Assembly (NCBI GenBank): GCA_964016885.1
Contig: OZ024741.1
Span: 378,386,001-378,450,000, forward strand
From: Eledone cirrhosa
Lineage: Eukaryota
Direction: 5' to 3'
DNA: 64,000 bases
Below the pieces are notes generated by a model. That model was not told where the DNA came from. It was given only the letters and a program-made list of their open reading frames with translations, and did no database searches. Both the position numbers and the translations under genes were made by a program. Below, piece by piece: positions 6,630 through 50,781 of this stretch; the first letter of the stretch is position 1; every line of letters begins with the position of its first letter.

Positions 6630-6922
6630 CCCAATATCACACATCAATCTAAAACTACTTTTCATATGTTGATTTAAAACTGCACTATTCACAAGTGTTT
6701 TTTTAACCTTCATATCATGTCTCCCTATTTTATCTGACGAAAACGCAAATGTCATCGCATGATGATATTTGTTTTTGAAATGCGCATAATAAAATACATG
6801 GGACTCTTTTAGCCATCTTTTGATCTTATATATTATTTATACTCCAGTCCTACAAACTGTAGAGTACTACTTATTCGATATCTGCTTTGCTTTATTGTAC
6901 TACAATAAAACTCACCTCCTAC
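6630..6922 (+). repeat. Hammerhead-bearing repeat (PLE terminal-repeat-like), copy 1
   Basis: Homologous to 29118-29380 and to the inverted copy at 28903-29103; ends at (TA)n. Confidence 0.85.
6728..6794 (+). ncRNA. Type I hammerhead ribozyme
   Basis: TTTTAT-CTGACGA-stem II (GCAAATGTCATC/GATGATATTTGT)-GAAA-TGCGCA-TA-ATAAAA. Confidence 0.85.
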
Positions 6923-7285
6923 ATATATATATATATATATATATATATATATATATATATATATATTAACAAATATTTATAAATTTATAAATAAATATTT
7001 GCTCTACGGTTCTTATATATCCGATATATATTTATCGTTATCGAGCCCTCTTTGGATTTTAGTCTTCACATTTATTATTATTACTATATGTATATATATA
7101 TATATATATATATATATATATATATATATATATATATATATATATACATGTGTGTGTGTGTGTTAAATGGCAGCTATGATGCTTCCATAGGCGGTATGCC
7201 AGTTGAGCACTCTATGCTCTTACAGAGCAGAGTATGATATAATATAAAACGAAAAATCAGTGATGCATCTGGACTCAAATTATTG

Positions 7286-7454
7286 TGTGTTACAATTGTT
7301 TCGCCAGCAGACAGCTTGAGACACGATCATTGTATGCATCTGCCTGATTCCAGAACTGTAGGTTCTTCGGACACTGGCAATAAATTCGGAACAAATTTGT
7401 TCCGAAATTATGATCGTGTCTCGAGCTGTCTGCCGGCGAAACAATTGTAAACAC
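7286..7454. repeat. Inverted repeat with ~45 bp arms
   Basis: gtgttacaattgtttcgccagcagacagcttgagacacgatcat / atgatcgtgtctcgagctgtctgccggcgaaacaattgtaaacac. Confidence 0.9.
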
Positions 7455-7689
7455 TGACTTCAAAATATATTGTTCGAATATAATCAATATTTAATTCTTT
7501 TTCATACATTTTGTATGAAAAAGAATTAAACGTAAAATTGTTTGTGGTAGTGTCTTTCAAGGTTACAGTAGAATTCAGAAATGGGATGTTAATTTAAAAG
7601 TGGTATTTACCTTTAAGAAAATAAGTTACAAGGAGAGTAAATGAAGAGAAAATAAAATATAATTAAATAAAATTAAGAGAGTGGGGGGT

Positions 7690-7945
7690 TTTAAACATTT
7701 TGCACTATCATGTTGTGTTCTGGGATATGGAACATTTTTTCTTGGACCATTTCTATATGTGAATGTTTCAATGTTCGCCATATTTGGTCAAGAGGGCAGA
7801 GAGTAGAGAGAAAAAAAGAACAGATAAGAAAAGCGTGAGCATTAAGAATGGGATAGAATAGAGAAGAAAGTGAAGAATTTAAGAATGTTTTGAAGTCTAT
7901 TGAATTCTTCGTGGGTTTTGTGAAAAGTTCTAATGCCACAGGTTA
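7690..7945 (-). mobile_element. Possible decayed Penelope-like endonuclease C-terminal fragment
   Basis: Frameshifted QIWRTLK...KWSKKK...CKM resembles KAWTLR...KWEKL...CKLC of the intact ORF. Confidence 0.3.
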
Positions 7946-48987: not shown

Positions 48988-49100
48988 ATATTGTTATACT
49001 TTGGGAGGGTCATGTTGTCAATAAGAAACACACGCACCAATTGATTCACTTCAATTTATTATATTATTGGCAACATGACCCTCCCAAAGTATATCAATAT
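48988..49100. repeat. Small inverted repeat (~37 bp arms)
   Basis: atattgttatactttgggagggtcatgttgtcaata / tattggcaacatgaccctcccaaagtatatcaatat. Confidence 0.9.
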
Positions 49101-49241
49101 CGGTTTCAACACACGATTTCAGATAAAGAATCTTGCTAAACAAATTCAGAAACGAAATATATATATATGTATATATATATATATATATATATATATATAT
49201 ATATATATATATATATATATATATATATAGGAACAAGTAAG

Positions 49242-49335
49242 ACCCCGACGGCTGAGCTCAAGCCGTTTCGACGGCTAATTCTGTACTGAATGAAAATGCA
49301 TTCTGGTATTTAAATAGCCGAACTTATCAAGGGAT
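49242..49335 (-). ncRNA. Type I hammerhead ribozyme, U3:A8 core variant
   Basis: Minus strand: ATCCC-TTGATAA-G-tt-CGGCTA...TAGCCG-t-C-GAAA-CGGCT-tgagctc-AGCCG-TC-GGGGT. Confidence 0.78.
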
Positions 49336-50734
49336 AATTCCATATATGGTCAAAGAAATAATCACCAGGATTGGTCACATCACAAGTTAGTAGTAAATCT
49401 GTGAGGTCAAGTTGGTGGGCGAAGGGGTAGCTAAACCTGCCGGTAGGAGAAAATGCGAGAGGGAGTGGAGTAGACCCATTCATGCGTTGGTAGTGCCAGC
49501 TACAGCTGGGTGTGAGGTCAACGAGGATACGGGGGAGGGGGGAGGGGGGAGGTCGAAACGGTAAGTAGAACAATGAAAGGTAAAACTATAAGAGGTACTG
49601 AGAGACAAAAAAAAAAAGCAAAATCTGGTTACGAAGACATAAGTCACTCGCTATTGCTAGGCTAAAGAAATACATAAATAAATAAATAAACAAATAAGTG
49701 AATAAAAGAATAGATAAATAAATTAAAAAAAAAAAATATATATATATATATATAATGTAGAATAAAAAAAAAAAAAAAAATAATAATAATAGAAATAAAC
49801 TAGATGGGACGGAAATAAAGGGCCCCTTAATCGAGGTATAAGTGCGAGTATCGTACGGTGACGGGTCAACAAAGGGGGGGGGGGGGGGGGGCAGAATACT
49901 AAAGAGACTACCACGAAAATAATAAAGGTTCTACCCCAATCACAGGGCCAGCAACCACCCAGTGCAAGAAAGTAAACTAGTACGAGAATATAATTCAGGG
50001 TCCCGCCAAAAAAAATACTAGTGCTAACTCTAAGGGTACCGCCACGAAACAAAAAGTCTTATACAAGCTACATGAAAGATCGTACGAAGTAAAAGTAAAG
50101 AACGGAAAATTAATACAGGACCCCCCCCCCCCCCCCCCAAAAAAAAAATAAAGGGAAAAAGAAGAAAGAAATACTGGATAAACGAGAAATTAAGGCAAAG
50201 ATACCACTAAGAAATATAGAAGGCACGGAAAAAATGAACAGCGGTCGGAGAAGGGGGCGAGTATCCGAAGTCTAACACCTCTGCTATAAAAAGCGGAGTC
50301 AGCCAAATCTATCATAGAATAGGGGAGGGGGTGGAGGTACTGAAGCTACACTGAAGCTACAGAGGCTAGTCAGTAGGAATGGGATGGTAAGATGACGGAC
50401 GCCTACTAACACCCCAAAAAATATTTTTTTATTTTCTTATTTTATTAGCCTCTTAATTTTCTCCTAGACTAATAGGTGTATTGGAGCCTGTAAGCTTTAT
50501 GCACTCATTGAGGGATTTTCTGAGATGCTTCTACGGGACCCCAAGTCTCTTGGTTTAATGTTGATGCGTGAATTATATATTTTTGTCTAATTTTTAAACT
50601 TCAATCCCTGACCCCGACAACTAATATAAAAGAGCCCCCCTTAAAGCGGAGTTGCTGATGTATACAACAATTTCAAACTGCTAGCCTTGAGTCCTACGTT
50701 GATGTAAACAATGATCTTGCAATCACATGTTATA

Positions 50735-50781
50735 TGCCTTGATAAGTCCCACCATGGGGTCGGACGAAACGGCTGTCGGCA
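50735..50781 (+). ncRNA. Minimal type I hammerhead ribozyme, U3:A8 core variant
   Basis: TGCC-TTGATAA-GTCC-caccatggggtc-GGAC-GAAA-C-ggct-G-TC-GGCA, followed by AATAAA. Confidence 0.78.

Follow-up and report, generated by a model that had tools for sequence, protein, structure and literature searches.

A 64-kb stretch of the Eledone cirrhosa genome (contig OZ024741.1 of assembly GCA_964016885.1, positions 378,386,001 to 378,450,000, forward strand; hereafter the window, in whose own numbering all positions are given) carries eight type-I hammerhead ribozyme motifs, which very probably mark the 3′ ends of 5′-truncated Penelope-like retrotransposons belonging mostly or wholly to the Hydra clade. 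Within the window this reading is based on the motifs themselves, their position before (TA)n tracts, the inverted arms in which some of them lie and four Hydra-type coding pieces. The pattern is well above chance, yet it is an instance of a published one, adding six families of a known kind, and it is ordinary because both the presence of hammerheads and the use of (TA)n as insertion site have been reported before for the Hydra clade (Craig et al., 2021; PMC8557442). In the sections of that paper drawn on here, 27 families are listed for the clade, of which 26 prefer (TA)n and one comes from an octopus. Their hammerheads are situated close to the 3′ ends, and the clade is defined by RWK and DKT motifs, a CxCX5C linker, the absence of CCHH, a C-terminal GIY-YIG nuclease, a canonical 3′ hammerhead and a length under 3 kb. 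An earlier, sequence-only reading of the window had proposed a Penelope-like origin and (TA)n targeting; both are supported, and narrowed to the Hydra clade, by an intact open reading frame (ORF), three decayed relatives and public loci.

The eight motifs which that reading had located, and their grouping into about six families, were all borne out, the two minus-strand coordinates (49242 and 28940) being the 3′ ends of their motifs. The core, C3/U3-U-G-A-N-G8/A8-A, G-A-A-A15.1 and U16.1-H17, is intact in all eight (C3-G8 in six, U3-A8 in two). Stem I is 4–8 bp long and open, as in type I, and A15.1 and U16.1 are 6–19 nt apart. Stem III is an ordinary hairpin in two motifs (cores at 30012 and 49330) and a self-complementary 6–8-mer in the other six, which form it only with a second copy, as a dimer. 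The palindromes TGCGCA (three copies), CACGTG and CTAG had been recognized correctly, and the motif with its core at 50739 has a G.U palindrome. Penelope-like hammerheads had also been described there as often minimal, a term that does not apply to the present motifs in its published sense: they are not min-HHRs as understood by Cervera and De la Pena (2014), because all eight possess helix III. By core and stems the eight sequences are type-I hammerheads, for which self-cleavage would be expected after H17.

Among the six sequence families (A to F), family A is present in three copies, in each of which stem I measures 8 bp, stem II 36 nt and the palindrome 8 nt. A1 (6726..6796, plus strand, core 6734, H17 6788, AUA, 135 nt to the next (TA)5+ tract) has a C3-G8 core and is carried by an element piece, 6630–6923, that ends at (TA)21. 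A2 (28938..29008, minus strand, core 29000, H17 28946, AUA) sits in a short inverted arm, 28908–29117, which ends at (TA)19, 38 nt past the cut site. A3 (29183..29253, plus strand, core 29191, H17 29245, AUA, 135 nt to (TA)5+) lies in the opposite arm, 29117–29380, with a tail 95 nt longer than that of A2. A1 and A3 differ at seven positions within the ribozyme, all of them neutral, being N7 or Watson-Crick/G.U swaps. B (30007..30055, plus strand, core 30012, H17 30050, GUA, 93 nt to (TA)5+) has a U.U pair at 10.1–11.1 and a 4-bp hairpin stem III, and its lowest-energy fold differs from a hammerhead. C (37331..37447, plus strand, core 37336, H17 37442, GUC, 42 nt to (TA)5+) combines an 88-nt stem II with a palindromic stem III, and D (38848..38890, plus strand, core 38854, H17 38884, GUA, 157 nt to (TA)5+) again has U.U at 10.1–11.1, together with a 6-nt palindromic stem III. 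E (49242..49335, minus strand, core 49330, H17 49247, GUC, 17 nt to (TA)5+) has a U3-A8 core, a 54-nt stem II and a 6-bp hairpin stem III; its lowest-energy fold is predicted to be the monomer three-way junction. F (50735..50781, plus strand, core 50739, H17 50777, GUC, 159 nt to (TA)5+) has the second U3-A8 core and the G.U palindrome; downstream of it come (TA)19 and 65 nt that repeat its tail in inverted orientation (50975–51039). E and F share 15 and 10 nt around their cores (E-values 0.009 and 0.11, the likeness being partly forced by the core), and the two may form one lineage. They occupy opposite strands at a distance of 1.4 kb and are divergently oriented, and E resembles F plus an 11-nt insert that turns stem III into a hairpin.

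That such motifs would simply be expected by chance in AT-rich DNA with 51 (TA)5+ tracts in 64 kb can practically be dismissed. With a strict descriptor (type-I core with C3-G8 or U3-A8, GAAA, UH and stems I–III, a palindromic stem III being permitted), seven matches were obtained; 100 dinucleotide shuffles, carried out within blocks of 500 nt, gave 0.2 on average and never more than 2. The one motif missed was E, located by eye (U3-A8 core, a small internal loop in its 54-nt stem II); the rule for stem II was relaxed specifically to catch it, and the relaxed descriptor returned exactly the eight motifs and no others in the window. When one mismatch was allowed, three further matches scored 10 or more, none of them close to TA, and these are regarded as chance. 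Chance is favored by the folding z-scores, weak for most motifs, and by an Rfam scan of the window at E ≤ 1, in which none of the 93 matches was a hammerhead or other ribozyme, all being microRNA or snoRNA models on TA hairpins. Against it stand the shuffles, the structure-neutral changes in family A, a covariance model built independently of the window (below) and the one-sided closeness to TA. Chance is thus rejected for the motif set as a whole; single weak members at 30893 and 31246 may be products of it.

The distance to (TA)n was considered against the TA-dense background. In the eight motifs the nearest 3′ (TA)5+ tract lies 17–159 nt past the cut site, in agreement with the approximately 15–160 nt proposed earlier, and the 5′ tract is 217–1022 nt away. 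For seven insertions (28940 and 29185 merged to one), with random draws limited to the TA-rich regions of the window, P(max ≤ 159) was 5e-6, the 159-nt limit being taken from the data themselves, and P(sum ≤ observed), which is independent of that limit, was 1.2e-4. With (TA)8+ tracts and six families the value was 4e-4, and the 3′ tract was the closer one in all seven insertions (p = 0.008). The closeness thus persists over the background at p of about 1e-4. In family D (core at 38854) the tract 157 nt past the cut site occurs in both inverted arms and is therefore internal to the element rather than its end, which is found at about 39163, approximately 279 nt past that site.

The most complete coding sequence in the window is an uninterrupted ORF at 34077..36398 on the plus strand, encoding 773 amino acids from the methionine, with reverse transcriptase (RT), a CxCX5C linker and, at the C-terminus, a nuclease of GIY-YIG type. 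It starts 50 nt past (TA)13 (34001–34026), and a TA-rich block follows from 36572. In an alignment of 21 proteins, it shows R37-W38-K39 (RWK), D121-K122-T123 (DKT replacing DKG), YRDD at 352–355 and a VY...YIG-type nuclease at the C-terminus; the translation also contains CxxC and CxH near the C-terminus, while CCHH is absent. Assignment to Naiad was rejected on the C-terminal position of the nuclease. By these motifs, the published reference proteins having been compared by eye, the ORF is of Hydra type and probably that of a Hydra-clade Penelope-like element. No match was found in a Pfam scan of the ORF. A homologue search in which 8000 candidates were scored gave 303 homologues, with identities of 43–45% at best. 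Six sequencing runs were listed for 34030–36570, with no RNA run among those listed. Motif C is 938 nt past the stop codon, with a microsatellite block between, and may be the end of this element, in which case the element would be 3.45 kb long and span the microsatellite.

A profile search of the window, for which 120 homologues listed for the intact ORF were used, revealed the other Hydra-type pieces, all on the minus strand. A decayed full-length ORF at 46660..48755, with stops and frameshifts, is 36% identical over the RT, and its 3′ end at 46389 adjoins (TA)30. A C-terminal endonuclease remnant was found at 6389..6630 and a weaker endonuclease remnant at 8020..8322. An inverted repeat at 48991–49097, between two TA tracts, lies upstream of the decayed ORF.

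Public sequences allow the association to be seen outside the window. Seventy-seven loci with a Hydra-type protein alignment were fetched, from the best 80 of at least 323 confirmed loci, and a hammerhead was present in 52 of them, 51 times in sense orientation, the loci not being independent of each other, as several share one motif. Forty loci cover the end of the ORF together with the following 350 nt; among these, 28 carry a sense hammerhead 53–524 nt downstream, and two an antisense one. In total, 64 motifs were found, as against 1.3 in base shuffles; the U.U pair known from B and D is present in 24 of the 64 and the U3-A8 core in three. A (TA)4+ tract occurs within 200 nt on the 3′ side of 11 of 37 public-locus motifs and on the 5′ side of three. 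In tandem Hydra-type loci (L021 at 2755–3001, L044 at 2130–2330, L011 and L047), the hammerhead can be separated by a TA run from the start of the following ORF, so that some (TA)n travel within the repeating unit. A covariance model was built from 45 of the public-locus motifs only; its covariation counts are not independent evidence, because its stems were chosen for pairing. In the window the model ranks B, D and F at the top with E-values of 7.5e-6 (B) to 1.6e-3, followed by A1–A3 at 0.09–0.37.

Family A offers a further link to the coding sequences. Contigs of four sequencing runs from three studies were aligned to 6335–6922, the contigs being uninformative on RNA ends. In a single run 4754 contigs fell on this region, the depth being mostly over the ribozyme part; family A is a mass repeat that occurs in runs of all three studies, and the summed depth is not taken as a copy number. 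At least 27 contigs depart at 6841 into a TA run, a short end like that of A2, and at least one is without the (TA)7 at 6313. Other copies run past 6624 into sequence that reads by eye as nuclease. Beside A1, an inverted left arm at 5508..6630 (minus strand) consists of the nuclease remnant 6389–6630 and a 3′ sequence that extends for approximately 880 nt up to (TA)23. No direct match was found between this arm (5500–6400) and family A, as expected if the two are consecutive parts of one element. The arrangement suggests that 5508–6923 is the 3′ part of one element with its upstream half inverted, tying family A to the Hydra-type nuclease. Inversion of the upstream half resembles L1 twin priming. 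The whole stretch 5462–6965 is probably a single insertion in which, with (TA)23 on one side and (TA)21 on the other, the upstream half is inverted and a nuclease remnant is joined to family A.

Besides the dependence among the public loci, several observations weigh against assigning all motifs to Hydra-clade ends. For no motif was uninterrupted sequence into an ORF directly demonstrated: continuity is inferred for A and possible for C, and the link between family A and the nuclease is a 12-nt match, made by eye, of the terminus of the left arm with loose ends from two runs. Past the intact ORF there is only a half core without GAAA (not counted), at 36516, 118 nt beyond the stop, and no intact hammerhead was found in the tail of the decayed ORF 46660–48755. 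Twelve of the 40 public loci with sufficient downstream sequence have no motif, and the median stem II there is 17 nt, compared to 36–88 nt here. With the covariance model, C is recovered only partially (E 3.5) and E not at all, and a half core is additionally matched at 30893 (E 0.034), 3 kb from TA. It is one of two core-like matches, 30893–30935 and 31246–31324, both on the plus strand, which have stems I and II without GAAA and may be decayed motifs or chance; the nearest (TA)5+ is at a distance of about 3 kb from them. Finally, some of the families may belong to other clades, because Naiad, Neptune and other Penelope clades likewise favor microsatellites, according to Craig et al. (2021; PMC8557442).

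Taking the motifs as ends of Hydra-clade elements, a mechanism can be proposed from known Penelope biology. The Hydra-clade nuclease would nick the TA tract, the freed DNA end would prime on the element RNA downstream of the ribozyme, and copying would typically halt after a few hundred bases, leaving just the ribozyme plus a tail; a second priming event would give the inverted arm. The template RNA was presumably uncut at that hammerhead, because each copy extends 17–279 nt past the cut site. The ribozymes would serve the element by processing tandem transcripts, mostly as dimers, and at these loci they are most likely inert passengers. For the Poseidon element PAc of Anolis, the parts of Frangieh et al. 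(2024; PMC11167929) considered here describe Penelope-like nucleases that nick AT-rich DNA, both strands being cut and extended, internal RNA priming that yields an optional tail, and uncut RNA as the main template. The two-site optional tail, AT-rich target, extension of both strands and uncut template all fit the copies in the window. PAc, in contrast, represents another clade, has a hammerhead overlapping the start of its ORF and is not presented there as (TA)n-specific.

Three of the eight motifs (A2, A3 and D) lie within long head-to-head inverted repeats. A2 and A3 form a single head-to-head insertion, 174 nt of which are 99% complementary, with a 95-nt tail on one arm only; D is a second one, with arms 38575–38831 and 38870–39109. 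Tail-to-tail arrangements, in which the same sequence points in from both sides (58–94 nt, 84–98%), were seen at three of the 32 merged TA tracts, where same-family sequence surrounds one tract (50872–51039, 46203–46482 and 25403–25622). Among mismatched flank pairs serving as control, 22 of 992 matched, most of these representing simple sequence or further arms of those insertions. Tail-to-tail copies could alternatively have arisen by repeated insertion into one tract or by assembly error. In the sections of Arkhipova et al. (2013; PMC3846280) used here, head-to-head copies are the usual type and self-priming on the sense template would give tail-to-tail ones. A tentative idea, which we consider somewhat doubtful, is that the palindromic (TA)n primes Penelope-like elements in undocumented ways, read-through RNA ending in (UA)n folding back or both cut ends priming together, and leaves tail-to-tail copies and L1-style twin-priming inversions (5508–6923). 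If so, the window would hold the genomic footprint of a sense-strand self-priming for which Arkhipova et al. (2013) gave no more than a prediction, hammerheads with stem II of up to 88 nt would occur about once per 8 kb of the genome, and the U3-A8 lineage would have shifted from dimer-only to monomer-competent through a short insertion. No paper documenting these junction types was found for Penelope-like elements at microsatellites or for octopus hammerheads, in a literature that excludes most subscription papers, including Arkhipova 2006.

Several families could instead be non-autonomous, retrozyme-like units of 300–450 nt that use the Hydra protein and spread via circular or tandem RNA, a retrozyme origin having also been raised by the sequence-only reading. 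Family D alone hints at a short permuted unit: its tail (39052–39166) recurs at 27960–28073 (92%) and, 94 nt on, is followed by D's upstream 31 nt (90%), as a permuted unit of approximately 436 nt predicts. It has moreover been argued that animal retrozymes derive from Penelope-like ends (preprint by Li et al., 2026). However, a broken core terminates the permuted copy, which may be a chimera with some other repeat. Upstream, family A seems to run on into nuclease sequence by way of a long 3′ region, and no tandem hammerhead-bearing unit is present in the window. We therefore consider this origin unlikely. The segment 27960–28198 is accordingly noted as a possible permuted family D unit or a chimera. 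Non-LTR retrozymes, as far as Cervera and De la Pena (2020; PMC7229834) and Li et al. (2026) are drawn on here, share the type-I hammerhead and the short non-coding repeats, and one family here may have a similar unit size; they differ from the present motifs, which form no tandem array and stand at truncated ends beside (TA)n.

The sequence-only reading had further suggested that solo ribozymes could cleave host intronic RNA transcribed through the window; activity on such RNA or on read-through RNA would shape host transcripts. All eight cores are intact, E is predicted to fold as a monomer, and A1 and A3, members of an abundant family, lie on one strand with an identical palindrome. Conservation is nevertheless explicable by selection acting while the element itself spreads. 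A hammerhead can cut no strand other than the one bearing it, six of the eight motifs require a partner copy, and the lowest-energy fold of B is not a hammerhead. For A2, A3 and D, read-through RNA of their head-to-head repeats is predicted to fold into long hairpins of −209 to −285 kcal/mol in which the motifs would be locked. No host exon was found in 62 of the 78 listed frames (at least 62 amino acids, outside LINE blocks; the other 16 were excluded as low-complexity or previously scanned) nor in 10 longer frames, a scan that short exons escape; three weak matches below the cut-off were rejected. According to the respective papers, single motifs did not cleave (Cervera and De la Pena, 2014; PMC4209133), and the Anolis hammerhead required protein, with no RNA-seq ends at its cut site (Frangieh et al., 2024; PMC11167929). 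Host RNA cleavage is accordingly left unsupported and appears very improbable.

The elements of the window are thus best compared with the described Hydra clade, which they resemble, on the sections of Craig et al. (2021; PMC8557442) considered, in protein motifs, (TA)n insertion, 5′-truncated and inverted copies, the U.U beside the core and a type-I hammerhead about 100–200 nt from the 3′ end. In contrast, the families found here are new, given the 43–45% identity of the best homologues, stem II is longer (36, 54 and 88 nt), the stem III palindromes are without a central spacer, the 3′ regions are probably longer (approximately 1 kb), and two cores are U3-A8, a type with no entry in the Hydra list of the supplement. 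U3-A8 and U.U at 10.1–11.1 are described natural variants (Perreault, 2011; PMC3088659, in part). Metazoan Penelope-like hammerheads, in the portion of Cervera and De la Pena (2014; PMC4209133) drawn on, include solo motifs, opposite-strand pairs, U3-A8 cores and palindromic helix III, and show low activity. The likeness extends to mostly single motifs from truncated elements, opposite-strand pairs 100–700 bp apart, small palindromic helices III, U3-A8 covariation and many families per genome, whereas the window has no strict min-HHR and includes two monomer-type hairpin stems III. The published pattern is extended by six families, all missed by Rfam. As dimer-only and monomer-type motifs occur together here, each presumably inserted from RNA that had not been cut, they offer a small natural panel for the purpose of the hammerhead. 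The junctions formed at the palindromic target, whether head-to-head, tail-to-tail or by inversion, offer one for the origin of inverted copies.

A ninth, weaker motif, absent from the earlier reading and not counted here, lies at 7285..7376 on the minus strand, with a U4C core and a loose stem II. It is 143 nt from (TA)28, has a head-to-head half copy at 7410–7454 and follows the layout of the counted motifs; the weak endonuclease remnant 8020..8322 is about 650 nt upstream of it. Identical 28-nt ends entering (TA)n at 28738–28765 and 33977–34004 represent another TA-ending repeat, in which no hammerhead was found, and a tandem unit of approximately 360 nt, between two TA tracts at 37507–38564, likewise gave no ribozyme. 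The rest of the repeat content includes an RT-linked zinc-finger remnant at 22485–23069 and decayed LINE copies at 1500–4400, 13800–22000, 39600–45100 and 51500–62600, with endonuclease, RT (PF00078 match at 43248–43757) and upstream ORF1-like frames.

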